Positions 36,494 to 47,244 are shown, counted from the first letter of the stretch. The stretch: 60,327 nucleotides of DNA from Gemmatimonadota bacterium (GCA_025350665.1 JANXXJ010000044.1:1-60327); one strand, 5' to 3'. Notes: a model not told the origin generated them from the sequence alone. A program made the numbers and translations.

Positions 36494-36994
36494 CTACCTC
36501 CGGCGGGCAATATAGCGGGGCCTGGAGGCCTCAGCACCGAGCCGGCCCTCGAAATCGTCGAGGATCTCGTGCAACGCCGCGAGCCGTTCGCGACCGACGC
36601 TCCGTTCGATCCCGTCGTACGCGGCCTCCGACTCGGGGGCCACCCGCCCGAGAAACGCCCGCCCGGCCGCCGAGAGCGAGATCCACGAGGACCGCTGGTC
36701 GGTCCGGCTCCCCTTCCGGACAATCAGCGTCCGGCCGGCCAGATCGCGGAGGATCCGGGACAGTGATGGCCCGCTCAGCACCGTGAGACCGGCGAGTGCC
36801 CCCGCCGTGGTCCGGTCCACCGAACTCAGGGCCCGGAGGACCCGCCACTGTTGTTCCGTCACGCCGTGCCGCCTGAGATGGGGACGGAAACGCTCCATCA
36901 CGGCCTCGCGGGCCCGAAGGAGCGCCATCGGCAGGGACTGCGAGAACGTGCGAAGGGATCGGGGCACGGGTCCGGACCGGTTTGACGGGAACAA
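36494..36994 (-). CDS. hpaR: Homoprotocatechuate operon repressor, MarR family (start may be GTG 36967)
   Basis: SLPMALLRAREAVMERFRP...GVTEQQWRVLR, PSLSRIL; divergent from the hpa cluster. Confidence 0.88.
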   Translation of the reverse strand: MFPSNRSGPVPRSLRTFSQSLPMALLRAREAVMERFRPHLRRHGVTEQQWRVLRALSSVDRTTAGALAGLTVLSGPSLSRILRDLAGRTLIVRKGSRTDQRSSWISLSAAGRAFLGRVAPESEAAYDGIERSVGRERLAALHEILDDFEGRLGAEASRPRYIARRR

Positions 36995-37011
36995 GTTACC
37001 ATGTTAACAAT
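36982..37011 (+). promoter_or_regulatory. Putative catabolic operon promoter with HpaR operator
   Basis: TTGACG at 36982; near-perfect palindrome GTTACCATGTTAAC (36995-37008) overlapping a weak -10-like TAACAAT. Confidence 0.6.
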
Positions 37012-37065
37012 TACCCCTGAACAATTAGGCGGGATTGTCACCGCCCGCAACCCCGGATCCCGGAC

Positions 37066-38076
37066 ATGAGCCACGAACCGGCCGACCTGTCGACCAACGA
37101 GAATCCACTCGGGCCTTCGCCGGCCGTGAAACTGGCCGTCGCCCGGGAAGCCCGGCGGGTCCATCGCTATCCGGCCCGGGACGATTCGGCCCTCCGTACG
37201 GCGCTCGCGTCCCACCACGGCCGGGACCTTACACCAGACCATTTCTTCGCCGGATCGAGCGCCTCGGAGATTCTCGCGTTCCTGGCCCGGGCCGCGTTCG
37301 CCCCGGGTGACGAGGGCATCGTCTGCTCCCCGACCTTCCCGGTGTACGCTCACACCATGGCCCATCAGGACGCCCGGCTCGTGGATGTCCCTCTCGATCC
37401 GGCCACGGCGGTCCACGACGGGGACCGGATCCTGGCCGCGATTACACCCCGCACCCGTCTCATCTATATCTGCAATCCGGGCAACCCCACCGGTGTGGTC
37501 CTTCCGGCGGCCGACTTCCGGGCCCTGCTCGATCGGGTCCCGCCCGGTGTCGTCGTGGTGGCGGACGAGGTTTACTACCAGTATGTCGCAGCGGACTTCC
37601 CCGATACCATTGAACAGATTCTCGCCGGTCGTGACGTGGTGATCGTGCACTCGTTCTCCAAGGGGTATGGCATGGCCGGTCTTCGGCTGGGCTACGGCAT
37701 CGCCCGCCCGGACCTGGTCCGCCGGTTCGGGAGGTTCCGCCTGACCTACCATCTGAGCGCCATCGCGCAGGCTGCCGGTGTCGCGGCGCTGACGGATCAG
37801 GGCCATGTGGAGAAGACCGTGGCGCTGACCAGGGACGGGCGCCGGTTCCTCGCTGTCGAGCTGGACCGGCTCGGGATCCGGTACTGGCCGAGCGAGGCCA
37901 ACTTCGTCCTCATCGCGCCGGCGGCGCCCGAGGCGGCGCTCGCTCGCCTCGCGGCCGACGGGATTCAGGTCCGGCCCGTTGAAGGCCCCGGCCGGGTCGC
38001 CTGCCTCCGCATCAGCATCGGCCGTCCCGACATGAACCGGCGGGTGATCGACGCCCTGGCCCAGGAAACCGCATGA
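37066..38076 (+). CDS. PLP-dependent HisC-like (class I/II) aminotransferase, probably aromatic substrate
   Basis: LSTNENPLGPSP, CNPGNPTG, DEVY, SFSKGYGMAGLRLGY, SEANFV. Confidence 0.85.
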   Translation: MSHEPADLSTNENPLGPSPAVKLAVAREARRVHRYPARDDSALRTALASHHGRDLTPDHFFAGSSASEILAFLARAAFAPGDEGIVCSPTFPVYAHTMAHQDARLVDVPLDPATAVHDGDRILAAITPRTRLIYICNPGNPTGVVLPAADFRALLDRVPPGVVVVADEVYYQYVAADFPDTIEQILAGRDVVIVHSFSKGYGMAGLRLGYGIARPDLVRRFGRFRLTYHLSAIAQAAGVAALTDQGHVEKTVALTRDGRRFLAVELDRLGIRYWPSEANFVLIAPAAPEAALARLAADGIQVRPVEGPGRVACLRISIGRPDMNRRVIDALAQETA

Positions 38077-39713
38077 CCGCTCAACTCACCGGTGGTGAGG
38101 CCGTCGTCGCCGCTCTCATCGCCCAGGGAGTCGACCTGGTCTACGGCCTTCCCGGCATCCAGAACGACTGGCTCTACAACGCGTTCTTCGATGCCCGTGA
38201 CCGGATCCGGGTCCTGCATACCCGGCACGAACAGGGCGCCGCCTATATGGCGCTCGGTCACGCCCTCGCGACCGGGCAGCCCGCGGTCTACAACGTGGTG
38301 CCCGGGCCCGGATTCCTGAACAGCACCGCCGCCCTGGCCACGGCCTACGGATTGAACGCGCCAGTGCTCTGCCTGAGCGGGCAGATCCCGTCGAAGACGA
38401 TCGGCAAGGCCCAGGGCATTCTCCACGAAATCCCCGACCAGTTCGGCATTCTCCGCTCGCTTACCAAATGGGCCGCCCGAATCGAGGCCCCCGGCGACGC
38501 GTCGAGCCTGGTTGCCGAAGCCTTCCGCCAGCTCCGGTCCGGCCGGCAGCGACCCGTCGGGCTCGAGGTCCCGATGGACATTCTCGAGATGCGGGCGGCG
38601 GTTGGCGCACCGGGTTTCCCGCGCGAACCGGAATATCCCGAGCCCGACCTCGACCTCATCGCCCAGGCCGCGCGCAAGCTTGGCGCCGCGAAGCACCCGA
38701 TGATTTTCGTGGGGGGCGGCGCCATGAACGCGTCCGCCGAGATTCGTGAACTGGCCGAGCTGCTTCAGGCCCCGGTGGTGGCGTACCGCACCGGCCGAGG
38801 CGTGCTCGACAGCCGGCACCATCTGAGCCTGGTCGCCCCCGAGGCCCACCCGCTCTGGCAGGATGCCGACGTGGTCCTCGCCGTCGGGACCAACCTCAGG
38901 ATGCCGCTCCAGCAATGGGGCGTGGATGACGACCTGACCGTGATTCGCATCGAGGTCGATCCGACCGCGCACGACCGGATCCGCGCCCCCGACATCGCCA
39001 TCACCGCCCGCGCGGAAGACGCCCTGCGTCCACTGATTGACCGAGTGAACCGGGCCAGCGTGGCCCGACCGCCCCGCCACGATGAGATGCAGACCCGGAA
39101 GGCTGCGTGGAACGCCGAATGCGCCTTTCTGGCGCCCCAGCGGGCCTTCCTCGACGTCATCCGGGAGGAGCTCGGTGAGAACGGCATCTTCGTTGAGGAA
39201 CTGACCCAGGTCGGCTTCTCGGCCCGGGCGATCTATCCGGTGTATCACCCCCGCACCTATATCGGGACCGGCTATCAGGGCACGCTGGGCTTTGGCTTTC
39301 CCACAGCACTCGGCGTGAAGGTGGCACGCCCAGACGTACCGGTGATCTCAGTGTCGGGGGACGGCGGGTTCATGTTCTGCGTGCAGGAGCTCGCTACGGC
39401 AGTCCAGCACAAGATTCCGCTGGTGTCCGTCATCTTCAACAACAGCCAGTACGGCAACGTCCAGCAGATGCAGCGGCAGCTCTACGGCAACCGGGTGATC
39501 GCCACCGATCTCGTCAACCCGGATTTCGTCCGCATGGCCGAGTCGTTCGGGGCTGCGGCGTGGCGGGCCCGGGACGCCGCCGAACTCCGGTCCGCGATTC
39601 GAGCCGGCCTCGCGGCGGACGTGCCCGTGGTCATCGACGTGCCCGTGGGCGACCTCCCGGACGTGGACCGGTTCCGGAAACAGCCTCGACTCCGGGGCCG
39701 GTCGGACCGTTAG
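38073..39713 (+). CDS. Thiamine-diphosphate-dependent enzyme (ALS/POX/decarboxylase-like)
   Basis: GLPG, RHEQGAAYMA, VPGPG, QGTLGFG, GDGGFMF...NN ThDP motif; no ALS small subunit adjacent. Confidence 0.9.
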   Translation: MTAQLTGGEAVVAALIAQGVDLVYGLPGIQNDWLYNAFFDARDRIRVLHTRHEQGAAYMALGHALATGQPAVYNVVPGPGFLNSTAALATAYGLNAPVLCLSGQIPSKTIGKAQGILHEIPDQFGILRSLTKWAARIEAPGDASSLVAEAFRQLRSGRQRPVGLEVPMDILEMRAAVGAPGFPREPEYPEPDLDLIAQAARKLGAAKHPMIFVGGGAMNASAEIRELAELLQAPVVAYRTGRGVLDSRHHLSLVAPEAHPLWQDADVVLAVGTNLRMPLQQWGVDDDLTVIRIEVDPTAHDRIRAPDIAITARAEDALRPLIDRVNRASVARPPRHDEMQTRKAAWNAECAFLAPQRAFLDVIREELGENGIFVEELTQVGFSARAIYPVYHPRTYIGTGYQGTLGFGFPTALGVKVARPDVPVISVSGDGGFMFCVQELATAVQHKIPLVSVIFNNSQYGNVQQMQRQLYGNRVIATDLVNPDFVRMAESFGAAAWRARDAAELRSAIRAGLAADVPVVIDVPVGDLPDVDRFRKQPRLRGRSDR

Positions 39714-39722
39714 GCGACCCGC

Positions 39723-40301
39723 ATGATCCCGCCCGAGCACCGGCCGCTCTGGACCCGGGCCCTGGCCTACCTCGGGGTCCGCCAGAACGCCGAGCACACC
39801 CGGTACAGCACCGGATTCGCCGAACGCCTGGTGGCGTGCTGTGGCGCCCGCGGCGACATCGTCCTGCCCGCGATCATTCTTCACGACACCGGCTGGAGTA
39901 CCGTCCCGGAGGACAAGATCCTCGCGTCGTTCGGTCCGCGCACCAGATACCCGGAACTCCGGCGCCAGCACGAGGTCGAAGGGGCACGGATCGCGAGGCG
40001 ACTGCTCACGGAGCTCGCCTACGGGCCTCCCGATATCGAGGTCATTGCCGCCATCATCGACGGGCACGACACCCGCGCTGAACCGATCTCTCTCGAGGAC
40101 GCGGTGGTCAAGGATGCCGACAAGCTCTGGCGTTACACCCGATTCGGGCTCGAGACTGTCAGAGCCTGGTTCGGTCATACGGTCGCCCAGCAGCTCGCCC
40201 TGCTCGAAGGCTGGGGCAAGACCAGGCTCGTTACCGATCCGGGCCGCCACATGGCGATGGGCCTCCTGACGGCGCTCCAGGCCGAGAACCGCAGCGACTG
40301 A
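39723..40301 (+). CDS. HD-domain protein
   Basis: H...ILHDTGW...QHEVEGA...GHD...VKDADKLWR. Confidence 0.85.
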   Translation: MIPPEHRPLWTRALAYLGVRQNAEHTRYSTGFAERLVACCGARGDIVLPAIILHDTGWSTVPEDKILASFGPRTRYPELRRQHEVEGARIARRLLTELAYGPPDIEVIAAIIDGHDTRAEPISLEDAVVKDADKLWRYTRFGLETVRAWFGHTVAQQLALLEGWGKTRLVTDPGRHMAMGLLTALQAENRSD

Positions 40302-41117
40302 ATGAATGCCGCCGAGAACGGCATCGTGCTGCCGAAAGGCTGGGCTGTGCGGACCCGGTTCGAGGAACTGGCCCGGTCCCAGCGGATCGTGTTCCTTGCC
40401 GGCCTTCCGGGCGTCGGGAAGAGTTTGCTGATCCAGCAGCTGGCGAGGATGGCCCATGGATGCGGGAGGAACGTATTCCTGCTGCAGTGGGACGTGGCGC
40501 GGGCCGCCTTTCAGACGCCCGAGATGCTGCTACGGTACCCCGAAATCGACGGCTTTACCCACGCGGCGCTCAAGAAGGCGGTCGGACTCTGGGCTCGGGA
40601 CGCCGTGGCGCGCTGGCACGAGACCAATGCCGATCCCGCGGCCCTGCTCATCGCCGAATCGCCGCTGATCGGGAACCGGTTGATCGAACTCGCCCAGCCC
40701 GCGGCCGACCGGGCCGAGCCGATTCTGGCGAGCGAGGCCACCCGATTTGTCGTGCCGGTGCCGACCCGGGAAGTCCGGGCCATGATCGAGGCCACCCGGG
40801 AGACTACCATCCAGTCGCCGCGACACCCGCGGGAGGTGTCGGACGCGCCGCCGAACGTGCTCCGGGCCTTGTGGCGTGAGGTCCTCCTCGAAGCCGTCCC
40901 AACCGAAACCCGCGCCGATCCGCCCTACGACCCGGCGGTATATGCCGGCGCATTCACCCTCTGGCTTGCGGGCCGGCACGCGGAGATAGTCTCGATCGAC
41001 CGAGTGCTCGCCCCGGGGACCTCGGCCTACCAACTCGACGTGCCGGCCGCGGACCTCGTGGCCAGCCAACCCGAAGTAGCCGACGTCATGCAGCGCATCG
41101 ACCGGATGTTCCAGTAA
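40302..41117 (+). CDS. Hypothetical P-loop NTPase/kinase-like protein
   Basis: Walker A LAGLPGVGKS; starts immediately after the HD gene stop. Confidence 0.65.
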   Translation: MNAAENGIVLPKGWAVRTRFEELARSQRIVFLAGLPGVGKSLLIQQLARMAHGCGRNVFLLQWDVARAAFQTPEMLLRYPEIDGFTHAALKKAVGLWARDAVARWHETNADPAALLIAESPLIGNRLIELAQPAADRAEPILASEATRFVVPVPTREVRAMIEATRETTIQSPRHPREVSDAPPNVLRALWREVLLEAVPTETRADPPYDPAVYAGAFTLWLAGRHAEIVSIDRVLAPGTSAYQLDVPAADLVASQPEVADVMQRIDRMFQ

Positions 41118-41134
41118 CTGAAGAGGACAGAGCT

Positions 41135-42661
41135 ATGGCCGCCGGATCCGCCTCATCGTCGATCACCCCGGATTTCATCGCGGCCGTGCGCGAGAGACTC
41201 GGGACGCAGGAGATCCCCCACTTCATCGGCGGGGAGTTCGTCCGCGGTGTTCGGGGCGAAACATTCGACACGCTCGACCCTTCGACCAACCGGCCGCTGG
41301 CCCGGGTCTCCCGCGGGTTTGCCGAAGACGTCAATCGCGCGGCCAACGCGGCGCACCAGGCCTTCGCCACCTGGCGGAGGCTGGCGCCCAAAGCCCGCCG
41401 CGCCCACCTGATCCGGATTGCGACCGTACTGGAAAAGCACGGCGACGAACTCGCCACGATCGAATGCCTCGACGCGGGCCAGGTGATCAACGTGGTCCGG
41501 GCCCAGATCGCCCGGGCCGCCGAAAATTTCACCTTCTACGCCGAATACGCCGAACGGGCCATGGACGGCCGGACCTATCCGGTCGGCCACGAGTGGCTGA
41601 ACTACACCGTTCGGGTACCGGTCGGGCCGTGCGGCATCATCACGCCGTGGAACTCGCCGCTGATGCTGGCGACCTGGCGGATCGCTCCGGCGCTGGCGAC
41701 CGGCAACACGGTGATCCTCAAGCCGGCCGAATGGTCGCCTCTCACCGCCTGGAAGCTCGCCCAGATCGTCCAGGAGGCGGACTTGCCGCCCGGCGTCTTC
41801 AACGTCGTCCAGGGCTTTGGCGAAGAAGCCGGTGCCCCGCTGGTGGCCCACCCCAAGGTGCCGCTCATCACGTTTACCGGTGAGACCACCACCGGCACCA
41901 TCGTCACCAAGAACGCGGCTGACCAGCTGAAACGCGTCTCCCTCGAGCTTGGCGGCAAGTCGCCGTCCGTCATCTTCGACGACGCGGACCTCGATCGGGC
42001 CCTCGACGGCACCGTGTTCCAGATCTTCAGCCTGAACGGCGAGCGCTGCACCGCGAACTCGCGGGTGCTGATCCAGGAATCGATCTTTGATGCGTTCGTG
42101 AGCCGGCTCGAAGCGAGGACCAGGGCCGTCACCGTCGGCCACCCGCTCGATCCGGATACCGAGGTGGGGCCGTTGATCCACACCGAGCATTGCGCCCGGG
42201 TCCTCGAGTACCTGGAGATCGGACGCCACGAAGGTGCCACGCTCGTGGCCGGTGGGCACCGGGTCGGCACCGAGGGAAACTACGTGTCGCCGACGCTGTT
42301 CACCGGCACCAACGCGATGCGGATCGCCCAGGAAGAGATCTTCGGCCCGGTCCTGGTGGCAATCCCGTTCACGGACGAAGCCGATGCCCTCGCCAAGGCG
42401 AACGACGTGAAGTACGGCCTCGCCGCCTATATCTGGACCCGCGACATCGCCCGGGCCCACCGCATGGCGCTCGGCATGGAGGCGGGCATGACGTGGCTCA
42501 ACAGCCACAACGTGCGCCACTTGCCGACGCCGTTCGGCGGTGTCAAGATGAGCGGCACCCACCGCGAAGGCGGCGAGTATGCGTTCGAGTTCTACACCGA
42601 AATGAAGAATGTCGCGGTGCCGCTCGGCAACCATCCGATCCCGCAGTTCGGAAAGAAGTAG
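41135..42661 (+). CDS. hpaE: 5-carboxymethyl-2-hydroxymuconate semialdehyde dehydrogenase
   Basis: ALDH motifs ITPWN, FTGETTTG, LELGGKSP, SLNGERCTA, EEIFGPV, and the HpaE-type tail HPIPQFG. Confidence 0.93.
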   Translation: MAAGSASSSITPDFIAAVRERLGTQEIPHFIGGEFVRGVRGETFDTLDPSTNRPLARVSRGFAEDVNRAANAAHQAFATWRRLAPKARRAHLIRIATVLEKHGDELATIECLDAGQVINVVRAQIARAAENFTFYAEYAERAMDGRTYPVGHEWLNYTVRVPVGPCGIITPWNSPLMLATWRIAPALATGNTVILKPAEWSPLTAWKLAQIVQEADLPPGVFNVVQGFGEEAGAPLVAHPKVPLITFTGETTTGTIVTKNAADQLKRVSLELGGKSPSVIFDDADLDRALDGTVFQIFSLNGERCTANSRVLIQESIFDAFVSRLEARTRAVTVGHPLDPDTEVGPLIHTEHCARVLEYLEIGRHEGATLVAGGHRVGTEGNYVSPTLFTGTNAMRIAQEEIFGPVLVAIPFTDEADALAKANDVKYGLAAYIWTRDIARAHRMALGMEAGMTWLNSHNVRHLPTPFGGVKMSGTHREGGEYAFEFYTEMKNVAVPLGNHPIPQFGKK

Positions 42662-42667
42662 GAGCCC

Positions 42668-43636
42668 ATGTCCGTCCCCGAGATCGTCCGCATTGGCCAC
42701 GTGGTGCTTACCGTGGCGGATCTGGCCCGGGCCCGCCATTTCTACGTGGATCTGCTGGGCATGAACGTCCTCCACGAGGGCAGCGGCGGGATCTATCTTC
42801 GCGGTGTCGAAGATCGCGAATGGTCGCTCAAGCTCGAACTTGGCGGCTCGCCCCGGGTGCGGCAGTTCGGTTTCAAGGTGGCAACCGATTCCACCCTCGA
42901 CGAGTTGGAGCGTCTGGCCGTGGACCTGGGTCTTCCGCATCGCCGTGAAACCGAGCGCGACCGGCCGGCGATGCTCAGGATCCAGGACCCGTTCGGCTTC
43001 CCGATGACCTACTACTATCAGTCGGTTCGCCACCCGTGGTTGCTCCAGCGATACGACCTCCATCGCGGCCCGGGCATCAGCCGGATCGACCACGTCAATC
43101 TGTTCTGCCCCACCGTGGCGGACATGGGCGCCTGGTACCAGCAGCGCCAGGGCTTCCGGCTGACCGAATACACGGAGGACAAGCATGGGGTGACCTGGGC
43201 CGTCTGGATGCATCGCAAGGGGAATGTCCACGACCTGGCCATCACCAACGGCACCGGGCCCCGGATGCACCATTTCGCCTACTGGCTGCCCGACGGCAAC
43301 CGGATCATGCAGCTGTGCGACATTCTGGCCGGCGCCCGCGCCGAGGCCCACATTGAGCGCGGGCCGGGCCGGCACGGCATTTCGAACGCCTTCTATCTCT
43401 ACCTCCGCGATCCCGACGGCCACCGGATCGAGCTGTACACCTCGGACTATCTCACCGTCGACCCGGATTTCGAGCCGATCCGCTGGGACCGGGACGACAT
43501 CCGCCGCCAGCAGCTGTGGGGTGGGCCGGCGCCGAAGTGCTGGTTTACCGAAGGCAGCATGGTCGAATCCGAAGACGGCGGTCTGGTCCCGACAACGGAG
43601 TCGGTCCTGACCGGCGTCCCGACCTACATCTCATGA
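42668..43636 (+). CDS. hpaD: 3,4-dihydroxyphenylacetate 2,3-dioxygenase (VOC/type I extradiol)
   Basis: IDHVN, HRKGNVHDLA, MHHFAY, IERGPGRHGISNAFYLYLRDPDGHRIELY. Confidence 0.93.
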   Translation: MSVPEIVRIGHVVLTVADLARARHFYVDLLGMNVLHEGSGGIYLRGVEDREWSLKLELGGSPRVRQFGFKVATDSTLDELERLAVDLGLPHRRETERDRPAMLRIQDPFGFPMTYYYQSVRHPWLLQRYDLHRGPGISRIDHVNLFCPTVADMGAWYQQRQGFRLTEYTEDKHGVTWAVWMHRKGNVHDLAITNGTGPRMHHFAYWLPDGNRIMQLCDILAGARAEAHIERGPGRHGISNAFYLYLRDPDGHRIELYTSDYLTVDPDFEPIRWDRDDIRRQQLWGGPAPKCWFTEGSMVESEDGGLVPTTESVLTGVPTYIS

Positions 43637-44322
43637 CCCGGATGTTCGTGCCCGACCCCCGCGGTCCGATTCCGGCCACCCGGGCCGTCTACGCCGCGGC
43701 GCTCAACCGACAGGCCACGCTCGCGGCGTTAGGCGACGCGCTCAGCCGCGACCCCTACCGCGAGCCGCCGCGGGCGCCGATCCTCCACCTCAAGCCGGCC
43801 AATACCTGGATCGGCCCGGGCGACCCCATCCCCTGCCCTCGGGACGTGCCCGCGCTCCGGATGGGCGGCACGCTCGGGCTCGTCATCGGCCGGACCGCGA
43901 GCCGGGTGGCGCCGGCCGAGGCACTGGACCACGTCGGGGGCTGGCTGATCGCCAACGACGTGAGTGTGCCGTACGAGTCCCACTACCGCCCGGCGATCAA
44001 GCAGCGTTGCCGGGATGGCTTCTGTCCGATCGGCCCGGCGGCGCCGGCGGCCGCTCTCGCCGAACCGGACCGGTGCGAAGTGGTGATCGAGATCGACGGC
44101 CGGATCCGGGGCCGGGCCGACGGAAGTGGGCTGGTCCGCGGCGCGGCCCGCCTCCTGTCCGACATCTCCGCGTTCATCACGTTTGAACCGGGCGACGTCC
44201 TGCTGATTGGCGAACCGCACGACAGCCCACTCGCCGAGCCGGGGGCGACCGTCCGGATCCTGATCGACGGAATCGGGTCGGTCACCAACCCGGTCCGCTG
44301 GGAACCTGCGGGGACCCCATGA
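43633..44322 (+). CDS. hpaG: HpaG isomerase/decarboxylase N-terminal subunit (FAH family)
   Basis: VYAAALN, PYREPPRAPILHLKPANT, ANDVS, YRPAIKQRCRDGFCPIG. Confidence 0.85.
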   Translation: MTRMFVPDPRGPIPATRAVYAAALNRQATLAALGDALSRDPYREPPRAPILHLKPANTWIGPGDPIPCPRDVPALRMGGTLGLVIGRTASRVAPAEALDHVGGWLIANDVSVPYESHYRPAIKQRCRDGFCPIGPAAPAAALAEPDRCEVVIEIDGRIRGRADGSGLVRGAARLLSDISAFITFEPGDVLLIGEPHDSPLAEPGATVRILIDGIGSVTNPVRWEPAGTP

Positions 44323-45065
44323 AGCGAGCCCGTGTCCTGGTCGATGGAGTCGAGTTCGCCGCCACGGAGGCGCCCGAGGGCTTGCGGCTGCCCGACGGGC
44401 GGTTCGTGCGCGACGAACAGGTCATCTGGTGTCCGCCCGTCACGCCCCGCACGACATTCGCGGTCGGCCTCAACTACGCCGACCACGCCCGGGAGCTGGC
44501 TTTCAAGCCGCCGACCGAACCGCTCGTGTTTCTCAAGGGTCCGAACACGTTCACCGGCCACCGGGGCCTGGTCACCCGCCCCGACGACGTGACCTTCATG
44601 CACTACGAGTGCGAGCTCGCCGTGGTGATCGGACGCACCGCCCGCCGGGTCCGGCAGGCCGAAGCCCTCGACCATGTCGCGGGCTACACGGTCGCCAACG
44701 ACTACGCCTTTCGTGACTACCTCGAGAATTACTATCGACCCAATCTCCGGGTGAAGAGCCGGGACCGGGCCACACCGCTCGGTCCCTGGCTGGTCGACGC
44801 CGCCGACGTGCCGGACCCGATGAACCTGGCGCTCCGTACGACGGTGAACGGCAAGGAGACCCTGAGTGGATCGACCCGGGACATGATTTTCGGCATCCCC
44901 TGGCTGATCGAATACCTGAGCGGCTTCATGACCCTCTCGCCGGGTGACCTGATTCTCACCGGCACACCGGAAGGCCTCGCCAATGTGATGCCCGGCGACG
45001 TCGTCATCACCGAGGTCGAGCAGGTCGGCCGGCTATCGAGCACCATCGTCGCGGAGACCCTCTGA
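44319..45065 (+). CDS. hpaG: HpaG isomerase/decarboxylase C-terminal subunit (FAH family)
   Basis: GLNYADH, PLVFLKGP, MHYECELAVVIG, DYLENYYRPNLRVKSRD, LTGTPEG. Confidence 0.9.
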   Translation: MKRARVLVDGVEFAATEAPEGLRLPDGRFVRDEQVIWCPPVTPRTTFAVGLNYADHARELAFKPPTEPLVFLKGPNTFTGHRGLVTRPDDVTFMHYECELAVVIGRTARRVRQAEALDHVAGYTVANDYAFRDYLENYYRPNLRVKSRDRATPLGPWLVDAADVPDPMNLALRTTVNGKETLSGSTRDMIFGIPWLIEYLSGFMTLSPGDLILTGTPEGLANVMPGDVVITEVEQVGRLSSTIVAETL

Positions 45066-45454
45066 TGCCCCATTTCGTGGTGGAGTACACGGACAATCTT
45101 GGCGCCGAAGCCCGGATCGGCGAACTGCTGACTCGCGTGAACCGGATTCTGCTGGCCCAGAATGGCGTGTTTCCGGCCGGCGGCATCCGGTCGCGGGCCG
45201 TCCGCCTCAGCGAGTACGCTGTTGCCGACGGGGCCGAGGACGACGCCTTCGTGCACGGCGTCCTTACGATCGGGAGCGGGCGTTCGGCAGAGGTGAAGCA
45301 GCGAGTGGGGGATCAGATCTTCGAGGCCATCAAGGACCACTTCGCCGGTCTCTACGCCCGCCGCAATCTCGCCCTCTCGTTTGAACTCGGCGAATTCAGC
45401 GAACAGGGTACCTGGAAGCACAACAACATCCACGCCCGGTTCAGGAAGGCCTGA
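45065..45454 (+). CDS. hpaF: 5-carboxymethyl-2-hydroxymuconate delta-isomerase
   Basis: N-terminal MPHFVVEYTDNL (catalytic Pro), GGIRSRA, KHNNIH. Confidence 0.92.
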   Translation: MPHFVVEYTDNLGAEARIGELLTRVNRILLAQNGVFPAGGIRSRAVRLSEYAVADGAEDDAFVHGVLTIGSGRSAEVKQRVGDQIFEAIKDHFAGLYARRNLALSFELGEFSEQGTWKHNNIHARFRKA

Positions 45455-45460
45455 GATTCC

Positions 45461-46261
45461 ATGGACAAGCGTTTGTTTCCCGACCTCGCGCGCCGCCTCG
45501 ACCAGTCGGAAAGGACCCGGCAGCAGATCCGCCAACTGTCCCTCGACTATCCGGACATCACGATCGAGGATGCCTACGCCATCCAGAATGCATGGGTCGG
45601 AATGAAACTCGCTGCCGGGCGGCGGGTCGTAGGCCACAAAATCGGGCTCACGTCCAAGGCGATGCAGTACGCCTCGAATATCTCCGAACCCGACTACGGC
45701 ACGCTGCTGGACGACATGGTATTCCAGAACGGATCGACTCTGCCGATGGACCGGTTCATCGTCCCCCGGGTGGAGGTCGAGCTGGCCTTCATTCTCGGCC
45801 GGTCGTTGTCGGGGCCGAACTGCACCCTGGTCGATGTACTCTCCGCCACGGATTACGTCGTGCCTGCCGTTGAGATCATCGATGCCCGGATCCAGCAGGT
45901 GGACCCGGACACGAAGACCACGCGGAAAGTGATGGACACGATCTCCGACAACGCCGCCAACGCCGGAATCGTCCTGGGCGGCCGTCCCTTCAAGCCGAAC
46001 GAGGGCGACATGCGATGGATCGCCGCCCTGTGCCACCGGAACGGGGAGATCGAAGTGTCGGGAGTCGCCGCCGCGGTGCTCAATCACCCGGCCAACGGCG
46101 TCGCGTGGCTGGCCAACAAGCTGGCCCCGCATGGCGTGGCGCTCGAACCGGGCGAGATCGTACTCGGCGGCTCGTTCGTAAGCCCGGTGCCGGCCCGCCG
46201 GGGCGACACATTCCATGTCGATTTCGGCCCCCACGGGTCGATCGCGTTCAATTTCGGCTGA
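45461..46261 (+). CDS. hpaH: 2-oxo-hepta-3-ene-1,7-dioate hydratase
   Basis: [48 protein letters not shown]. Confidence 0.93.
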
Positions 46262-46274
46262 TCGAGGCGCCGTC

Positions 46275-46857
46275 ATGAATTTTCCCCTCGTCGACACCAC
46301 CGCCGCCGTCACGCAGATCGATTCTGGCAGCACCGCCTGGATGCTGGCGAGCGCGGCGTTCGTCCTCCTGATGGTGCCGGGCCTCGCGATGGCAACATGG
46401 AAAACCGACCAGCCTCGGCATGGCCTCGGGTGTCGTCGCGGGGCTGGTGGGTATTACCCCGGCCGCCGGCCATGTCCAGCCGCTCTGGGCCATGTTGATC
46501 GGAGCCATGACGTCTGCCGCCTGTTATACGGCCGTGCAGCTCAAGGCGCGGGGTGGCTATGACGACGCGCTCGACGCCTTCGGGGTTCACGGGGTGGGTG
46601 GTCTGGTGGGGGCGCTGGCCACCGGCGTCTTCTGTTTCACCCCGGTCGCCGGCCTGCTACGCGGCGGCGGTCTCACCCAGCTTGGCAAACAGGCCCTGGG
46701 CGCGGGCGCCGCGATCGCCTTCGCGATGCTCGGCACCCTGATCATCGGAACCGTACTCAAGGCCACGATGGGTCTCCGCGTCACCGAGGCGCAGGAGCGG
46801 GAGGGCCTCGACCTGAGCCTCCACGGCGAACGCGGCTACCACTCGGAACTGATCTGA
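46275..46857 (+). pseudogene. amtB: Ammonium transporter with large internal deletion and frameshift
   Basis: N-terminus IDSGSTAWMLASAAFVLLMVPGLA is joined out of frame at about 46389 to the C-terminal part GKPTSLGMASGVVAGLVGITPAAG...YDDALDAFGVHG...GLDLSLHGE. Confidence 0.9.
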
Positions 46858-46885
46858 CCCGGACCTTGAGTCCGATGGGAGCAAC

Positions 46886-47244
<359 letters not shown>

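Follow-up and report, generated by a model that had tools for sequence, protein, structure and literature searches.

A stretch of DNA of 60,327 nucleotides from a Gemmatimonadota bacterium (GCA_025350665.1 JANXXJ010000044.1:1-60327; hereafter the window, meaning this stretch at its full length) carries an operon for the degradation of homoprotocatechuate (3,4-dihydroxyphenylacetate, DOPAC) with four additional genes at its head. These encode an aminotransferase, a thiamine diphosphate (ThDP) enzyme, an HD-domain protein and a P-loop protein. The four upper genes very probably encode enzymes that convert an aromatic amino acid to homoprotocatechuate. With moderate confidence, we regard L-3,4-dihydroxyphenylalanine (L-DOPA) as the best-supported substrate of this upper module. 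The lower ring-cleavage pathway is already known. The upper module is real and conserved, its gene content, order, conservation and co-occurrence being observed directly, and it is apparently undescribed: we found no description of it in a literature whose coverage was thin for subscription journals and for older work on tyrosine degradation via homoprotocatechuate, of which that of Sparnins and Chapman (1976) is reportedly an example.

Organization and regulation of the operon

All eleven genes named in an initial annotation of this DNA, from the divergent hpaR through the tight operon to hpaH, are present, and their sequence and strands are as given there (Table 1). Gaps between genes on the plus strand range from -4 to +17 bases. 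The composition is even across the operon genes (GC content 0.64-0.73; GC content at third codon positions 0.82-0.89), and HpaR, HpaE, HpaD, both HpaG halves and HpaH score above their NCBIfam cut-offs. The near-palindrome GTTACCATGTTAAC between hpaR and the aminotransferase gene is one mismatch away from the published HpaR site, TTAA-N4-TTAA, as given in the available part of PMC7180172. With up to two mismatches allowed, neither the window (chance expectation 0.01) nor the genome holds another such site. It is conserved in a second genome of the genus (G002), and two Acidobacteriota loci have it upstream of their module operon. Since the upper four genes sit between the palindrome and hpaE, this arrangement suggests one HpaR-controlled transcript. 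A sigma-70 scan gave one promoter-like site (0.9 expected), and there were three terminator-like sites (4.3 expected), which is uninformative.

Within the operon there is no hpaI, hpaX or hpaBC, and no aldehyde dehydrogenase besides HpaE. The annotation had noted the lack of an aryl-aldehyde dehydrogenase gene, which is correct. It had made no mention of the missing hpaI. It had also reported hpaBC and hpaX as absent; this is true of the operon, and for hpaBC it is not true of the genome, where HpaB and an HpaC-like protein are encoded on contig C103.

Conservation of the upper module

The ThDP ortholog occurs in 8 of 22 genomes of the genus, and the HD gene in exactly the same 8. All 8 have hpaD, as against 3 of the 14 genomes without the module. 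The order aminotransferase-ThDP-HD-P-loop is kept in 8/8, and hpaE follows directly in 7, which are all those whose contig reaches that far. A StyD-like aldehyde dehydrogenase gene lies directly ahead of the aminotransferase gene in G009 and G011. In G013, all that is left ahead of hpaE is a C-terminal P-loop fragment of 104 aa (L025:8030-8344), which indicates that the upper module was lost secondarily.

The P-loop family numbers 1019 relatives. A P-loop alignment scan gave 278 confirmed relatives, of which the best 74 loci were taken; this set was selected on the P-loop gene alone and is rich in Chloroflexota. A ThDP ortholog (53-76% identical) is present in 43 of these best 74 loci, in six phyla: 6 Gemmatimonadota, 3 Acidobacteriota, 22 Chloroflexota, 3 Deinococcota, 2 Rhodothermota and 5 Pseudomonadota, with 2 unassigned. 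It adjoins the P-loop gene in 24/43 and is separated from it by the HD gene alone in 16/43 (40/43 together). Aminotransferase, ThDP, P-loop and hpaD genes are found together in 18 of the 74 loci. The P-loop gene was not found in 400 sampled Pseudomonadota genomes, and a metagenome scan returned one locus. Sulfatase-like genes stand beside the module in three phyla (L074, L089 and L101), and in L074 an aromatic amino acid permease gene follows it.

For 50 of the 74 loci the source genomes were searched; these yielded 37 module genomes outside the genus, after exclusion of G064, a duplicate of G001, and of L103 in G087, whose ThDP gene is merely 28.6% identical. HpaD is encoded in 32/37, in 27 as the VOC type and in 5, all Pseudomonadota, as the unrelated LigB type. 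The background frequencies of HpaD are 15/200 in the order of G084 and 9/200 in the class of G045. HpaB exceeded its cut-off in 5/37 and was undetected in 27/32 of the module genomes with HpaD, where E. coli-type HpaB was searched in five genomes and other hydroxylase classes were unsearched. In 10 module genomes HpaD is present while HpaB and the heme hydroxylase described below are both undetected.

The 74 loci contain 12 aldehyde dehydrogenases other than HpaE, 7 of which share 50% identity or more with the StyD-like enzyme found in G009. PuuC-like or similar enzymes occur in 4 of the 74. These dehydrogenases make a simple decarboxylation to the aldehyde more likely than an oxidative one; the annotation had considered both.

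A predicted heme tyrosine hydroxylase in related clusters

A 184-aa SfmD-like gene lies between or after the P-loop genes in 18 of the 74 loci, 17 of which also have hpaG or hpaD. Its best PDB matches are SfmD (6VDP, E 8e-15) and TyrH (E 8e-6). SfmD turns L-tyrosine into L-DOPA and is an HxnHxxxC motif enzyme, as described in the accessible text of PMC8179489. In the 8 copies aligned out of 18, H99, H139 and C143 are invariant and form this motif with n = 39, within the SfmD-type range of 37-40. HppD is encoded in 1 of the 18 genomes and HpaB in 2. HppD is encoded in 10 module genomes without the SfmD-like gene. The simplest reading of an SfmD-like gene where HppD is absent, and of HppD elsewhere, is that L-DOPA is the shared substrate of the module, formed on the spot where tyrosine lacks another route and imported or produced in some other way where HppD is present. 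A predicted hydroxylase of the amino acid in 18 clusters also suggests that hydroxylation precedes transamination.

Some P-loop proteins are longer (424-434 aa, with an extra C-terminal domain assigned to PF27188 by precomputed annotation; for example L046:7834-9108), and the SfmD-like gene follows the gene for this long form in 15/15 loci. An Atlas search gave no named family for this C-terminal domain.

A 533-aa Phototrophicaceae protein was also considered as a tyrosine hydroxylase. It matches the SfmD-like profile weakly (E ~1e-10), lacks the motif cysteine and has no SfmD or TyrH match in the PDB, so that the support it gives is weak. It might represent a third, weaker case of a hydroxylase-linked module. 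The protein is a fusion of 533-539 aa, with a weakly SfmD-like helical domain and a C-terminal Rieske ferredoxin, and adjoins the aminotransferase ortholog in three Phototrophicaceae-type genomes (L127:6880-8481, L128:6158-7759 and L129:5951-7570).

The aminotransferase and the ThDP enzyme

The best PDB match of the aminotransferase is the Mycobacterium tuberculosis aromatic aminotransferase (ArAT) 4R2N (E 4e-45). It falls slightly under the cut-off of the hisC family TIGR01141 (267.7 < 276.55 bits), which the ortholog in the L099 module does exceed. Residue K199 is invariant in 36 module copies. In the pocket, F91 is present in 36/36, position 228 is F or Y, and position 67 is mixed. The window enzyme falls between the pocket patterns of ArAT and of the histidinol-phosphate aminotransferase (HspAT) (PMC4703992). 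The HisC pattern of HspAT, with pocket residues Asn103/Tyr127/Met129/Tyr261 and the lid residue Tyr25, is not found in it. A separate hisC is part of an apparently complete his operon on contig C29. The N-terminal lid is absent in the aminotransferases of all Gemmatimonadota copies, which have 10 residues ahead of the NEN motif, compared with 26-40 in most other phyla.

By its score, the ThDP enzyme is a member of the PRK08266 family. The runner-up, the AruI family PRK07524, is under its cut-off (379 < 500 bits), and acetohydroxyacid synthase (AHAS) is far under it (311 < 538 bits). The catalytic E53 and the G429-D430-G431 (GDG) motif are invariant in the module copies. No gene for an acetolactate synthase small subunit adjoins the ThDP gene, ilvC was not found in the genome (94% complete), and no clear ilvB was found elsewhere in it. 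The annotation had asked about separate copies of hisC, ilvB and hpaBC; the genome has the first and the last, on C29 and C103. Because hisC is in the his operon on C29 and ilvC was not found, a housekeeping role as HisC and AHAS is unlikely for the aminotransferase and the ThDP enzyme.

Outside the genus, the closest copies of the window ThDP enzyme are three from Acidobacteriota, with which it clusters (support 100/99). In these three genomes HpaD and HppD are present, and HpaB and the heme hydroxylase were undetected. A more distant PRK08266 member on Rhizobium plasmids, 48% identical, follows a gene for a TyrB-class aromatic transaminase and is an independent instance of the same pairing. 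Symbiosis plasmids of Cupriavidus taiwanensis (L136:6952-12519) carry an aminotransferase-ThDP pair near nifDK, without the P-loop gene and beside a PRK05849 PEP-synthase-like gene. Microvirga holds a similar pair.

The HD and P-loop proteins

Plasmid matches of the HD protein are confined to Rhodococcus clusters whose genes are arranged as in the cre operon. In these cre-type clusters it is 47.8% identical to the upstream HD gene and 39% identical to the gene in the creD position, where creD is assigned by gene order from the gene table that is the available part of PMC7764795 and Corynebacterium glutamicum CreD lies outside the comparison. The metal site, H54-D55, H83, H115 and D133, is invariant over 21 aligned rows, including three Rhodococcus proteins. 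A HAD hydrolase gene follows the P-loop gene, replacing the HD gene, in five Pseudomonadota loci and two plasmids. Two Rhodothermaceae clusters end with a metallophosphoesterase gene. In L089, a nitroreductase-family gene (L089:9229-9921), which we take to resemble iodotyrosine deiodinase, is found between the HD and P-loop genes.

The invariant features of the P-loop protein are the Walker A motif, D64-x-x-R67, E119, R159 and R166, the two arginines R159 and R166 being located after strand 4. We read Walker A, the D-x-x-R motif after strand 2 and the lid arginines as kinase features. The best sequence match, a weak one, is PSTK (E 2e-4 over 46 columns), in which the D-x-x-R after strand 2 aligns; weak matches to adenosine 5'-phosphosulfate (APS) and adenylate kinases were also obtained. 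In fold searches with the structure model (predicted local distance difference test score, pLDDT, 91.5), kinases, among them chloramphenicol phosphotransferase and gluconate kinase, tie with Get3/ArsA ATPases at Z 8-10. These searches pointed to no single P-loop family, and none of 30 Atlas matches belonged to a Pfam-named cluster. A predicted complex of the ThDP enzyme with the P-loop protein scored 0.00, which gives no verdict either way. No homolog of the PEP-synthase-type (phosphoenolpyruvate synthase) kinases is present in the operon, and elsewhere in the genome there is one weak partial match.

The likeness of the HD protein to cre clusters, its replacement by a HAD hydrolase and the kinase motifs of the P-loop protein together suggest a chemistry of phosphorylation, transformation and dephosphorylation with a new kinase family. 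Tentatively, the P-loop protein could be an aryl kinase that places a phosphate on a ring hydroxyl, and the HD protein a phosphatase that later takes it off, so that the catechol is shielded in between; we lean slightly to the doubtful side on this point.

Hydroxylases and tyrosine degradation elsewhere in the genome

The annotation had explained the missing hydroxylase by a substrate that is already dihydroxylated. This argument does not hold here, because hpaBC is encoded elsewhere in the genome: HpaB is above its cut-off (564 > 480 bits) and is accompanied by an HpaC-like reductase on C103, next to paaABCD. There is a precedent for unlinked hpaBC in strain LB400, where the genes are 309 kb from the hpa cluster (PMC3053370). 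HpaB does not track the operon, since it is also present in 6 genus genomes without VOC-type hpaD, 4 of which are negative for the other HpaD fold too. The C103 region (L032:3359-7163, G000) has gntR and an operon of hpaB, a 2-hydroxyacid dehydrogenase gene and hpaC ahead of paaABCD. This type of hpaB operon recurs in many genomes of the genus; some of these have no hpaD at all and carry a lactonase-like gene where hpaC would be. Its substrate may be other than 4-hydroxyphenylacetate.

HppD is encoded in the genome. No hmgA was found with Pfam HgmA_C, and the gene beside hppD matches TIGR01015 weakly (52 bits). With HppD and this weakly hmgA-like neighbour, tyrosine likely has its ordinary route here. 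No SfmD- or TyrH-like gene was found in the genome, and no PRK08132 monooxygenase among the 18 of 42 candidates that were scored.

Proposed pathway and alternatives

We infer all reactions of the four upper genes. The aminotransferase would convert L-DOPA to 3,4-dihydroxyphenylpyruvate, and the ThDP enzyme would decarboxylate this to the aldehyde. A dehydrogenase, whose gene would be outside the operon here and is inside it in some relatives, would oxidise the aldehyde to homoprotocatechuate, which HpaD, E, F, G and H would then break down by meta-cleavage. In lineages without HppD, the in-cluster heme hydroxylase would make L-DOPA from tyrosine. As HppD is present here, the L-DOPA used by the operon would be imported or come from HpaBC. 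The P-loop protein would phosphorylate a ring hydroxyl and the HD protein would dephosphorylate it, as in the Cre and Hpe pathways compared below. The annotation had drawn the same line from L-DOPA through 3,4-dihydroxyphenylpyruvate and the aldehyde or DOPAC to meta-cleavage. That line gains from the SfmD-like gene in 18 clusters, HpaD without detected HpaB in 27/32 module genomes, the StyD-like dehydrogenases of relatives and the separate hisC; it loses the argument from the missing hydroxylase. The most extended version would be a cross-phylum pathway in which a new P-loop kinase family O-phosphorylates L-DOPA or its first intermediates, the catechol stays shielded during transamination, decarboxylation and oxidation, a CreD-like or HAD phosphatase frees homoprotocatechuate, and an SfmD-type enzyme gives Chloroflexota and Rhodothermota an HppD-independent tyrosine degradation. 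As a whole, we consider this version rather unlikely.

Several observations count against parts of this proposal. HpaB is present in 16/22 genus genomes and in 7/8 of those with the module, including the window genome, which leaves a monohydroxylated substrate equally open here. The counts of HpaB absence carry the search scope given above, the assemblies behind the module-genome tallies are incomplete, and related genomes are not independent. HpaD of neither fold was found in 5/37 module genomes. The ThDP gene is missing in 31/74 P-loop loci, some of them on short contigs and others with stand-alone P-loop genes. The 18 SfmD-bearing genomes represent two lineages only. The HD gene is missing from 13 of these 18, with no phosphoesterase seen in the locus in 11 of the 13; with the CreD-like HD gene in 5/18, a dedicated phosphatase is not always there. 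The aminotransferase pocket (S67/F91/V93/Y228) matches that of ArAT (V86/F110/L112/F246) in part, and the Phe of F91 is also present in the true hisC of the genome, so that this comparison of residues decides neither way. In this genome, the best match to the StyD-like aldehyde dehydrogenase of relatives is ~40% identical and no ortholog was found, and the hpaI candidate, an HpcH/HpaI-family gene on contig C313, is under its cut-off (148 < 369 bits).

An Ehrlich-type route would have L-tyrosine or m-tyrosine converted to 4- or 3-hydroxyphenylacetate, with later hydroxylation by unlinked HpaBC or, in some relatives, by a PRK08132 flavin monooxygenase. The HpaB and HpaC-like genes on C103 would fit this, as would HpaB in 7/8 genus module genomes and inside two related clusters (L063 and L089). 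The PRK08132 monooxygenase and a 63-64 aa partner, a size that matches MhaAB (PMC3053370), are encoded directly upstream of the module in G009, G011 and G012; two alphaproteobacterial plasmids carry them in divergent orientation. However, HpaB does not track the module, being found in the 6 genus genomes without VOC-type hpaD and missing beside HpaD in 27/32 genomes elsewhere; HppD already deals with tyrosine here, and the predicted hydroxylase of the 18 clusters would act on the amino acid, before transamination. This route is the main rival to L-DOPA, and we regard it as unlikely. Far less probable still is a module that takes in a phosphorylated compound or an aryl amino alcohol, for which the kinase would form an alkyl phosphate, followed by HisC-like transamination, dephosphorylation by the HD protein and ketol cleavage by the ThDP enzyme, or one that O-phosphotyrosine enters with its phosphate in place. 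Such a scheme uses all four genes in one sequence, and it suits both the HisC fold family of the aminotransferase and the fold ties of the P-loop protein with chloramphenicol phosphotransferase and gluconate kinase. Against it, Asn103, Tyr127 and Met129 of HspAT are not retained and the Tyr25 lid is gone, SfmD-type hydroxylases use amino acids, and the nearest annotated relatives of the HD protein are in phenol-phosphorylating clusters.

A further reading is compatible with the L-DOPA route: the P-loop and HD proteins might be accessory, with no phosphorylated intermediate. L-DOPA inactivates pyridoxal 5'-phosphate (PLP) by cyclisation, and the pair might repair the cofactor after catechol-PLP adducts form, or give ATP-dependent support to the ThDP enzyme. 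The P-loop gene is most tightly linked to the ThDP gene, many clusters have no linked phosphatase, and the P-loop fold is as close to Get3/ArsA ATPases as to kinases. The alignment of D-x-x-R after strand 2 with the kinase PSTK speaks for a kinase instead, as do the cre-cluster type of the HD gene and the fact that the place next to the P-loop gene is taken by an HD gene in some phyla and by a HAD gene in others. We find an accessory role somewhat unlikely. A chance placement of a housekeeping hisC and ilvB next to hpa genes is extremely improbable. The top generic annotations are indeed hisC-like and acetolactate-synthase-like, and no clear ilvB is found elsewhere; but hisC stands in the full his operon on C29, ilvC was not found, the ThDP enzyme is well short of the AHAS cut-off and the linkage to hpa genes recurs across phyla.

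Feature coordinates and the downstream region

Just past hpaH, at 46276-47240 of the window, amtB is broken into an N-terminal piece and a C-terminal third in different frames, with the middle gone. In the same region glnK is frameshifted, and ~875 bases fail to align with the corresponding G002 locus. A tblastn search turned up no second copy.

Table 1. Positions in the window, strands and assignments of the operon features. CHM, 5-carboxymethyl-2-hydroxymuconate; CHMS, its semialdehyde.
Feature	Position	Strand	Basis
hpaR, MarR-family repressor	36494..36994	-	TIGR02337, 141.7 > 121.2 bits; TTG-start ORF (open reading frame), real start maybe a few codons downstream
Candidate HpaR operator, near-palindrome (predicted site)	36995..37008	none	Sequence match
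Class I-beta PLP aminotransferase, predicted aromatic amino acid (L-DOPA/Tyr) transaminase	37066..38076	+	PF00155
ThDP enzyme, PRK08266 family, predicted aryl-pyruvate decarboxylase	38073..39713	+	PRK08266, 745.7 > 571 bits
HD-domain protein, predicted CreD-like aryl-phosphate phosphohydrolase	39723..40301	+	PF01966
P-loop protein, unnamed family, predicted hydroxyl kinase	40302..41117	+	Motifs and fold matches
hpaE, CHMS dehydrogenase	41135..42661	+	TIGR02299, 775.6 > 638.35
hpaD, homoprotocatechuate 2,3-dioxygenase (VOC type)	42668..43636	+	TIGR02295, 381 > 321.4
hpaG1, isomerase/decarboxylase N-terminal half	43633..44322	+	TIGR02305, 228.9 > 228.65
hpaG2, isomerase/decarboxylase C-terminal half	44319..45065	+	TIGR02303, 367.8 > 276.4
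hpaF, CHM isomerase	45065..45454	+	PF02962, E 7e-51; below PRK15031 cut-off, 132 vs 215 bits
hpaH, 2-oxo-hept-4-ene-1,7-dioate hydratase	45461..46261	+	TIGR02312, 442.9 > 351.5

Significance and comparison with known systems

If the proposal is correct, the operon would define by its genes a route by which L-DOPA, found in plants and used as a drug, is degraded completely under aerobic conditions, and related clusters would hold a tyrosine route that bypasses HppD. It would also give functions to the PRK08266 ThDP family, to an orphan P-loop family and to an SfmD-type heme enzyme that would be the first with a catabolic role. If the P-loop protein is an aryl kinase, it would add a third, convergent way of phosphorylating phenols to those of CreHI and HpeHI, which are of the PEP-synthase type.

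The operon shares HpaR and HpaE, D, G, F and H with the hpa meta-cleavage operon (hpaGEDFHI with hpaR and hpaBC) of E. coli W, Yersinia and B. xenovorans LB400. In both, a site resembling TTAA-N4-TTAA, here a predicted one, separates hpaR from the first gene. The window operon differs in the four upper genes between this operator and hpaE, in having hpaI, hpaX and hpaBC outside it or absent, and in the VOC type of its HpaD.

Routes made up of a transaminase, a ThDP decarboxylase and an aldehyde dehydrogenase include the Ehrlich pathway, AruH-AruI-KauB of P. aeruginosa and Pat-Pdc-Pdh of Aromatoleum. The proposed pathway follows the same three-step logic, and AruI (PRK07524) is the nearest named ThDP family. 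In contrast to these routes, the window has a PRK08266 ThDP enzyme, a HisC-fold transaminase, a predicted catecholic substrate, a coupling to meta-cleavage and two extra genes.

The Cre pathway of C. glutamicum for 4-cresol begins with phosphorylation of the phenol (available part of PMC7764795), and the Hpe pathway of Rhodococcus for acetovanillone phosphorylates, transforms and dephosphorylates its substrate (available part of PMC9618137). CreHI and HpeHI are PEP-synthase-type kinases of two subunits, whereas the candidate kinase here is a P-loop protein whose phosphorylation step is predicted. HpeD is a NagD-like enzyme, presumably of the HAD family, and a HAD gene fills the corresponding slot in the proteobacterial copies of the module. 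SfmD itself is a biosynthetic enzyme of 365 aa, whereas its homolog in the related clusters is a single-domain protein of 184 aa in a catabolic context.

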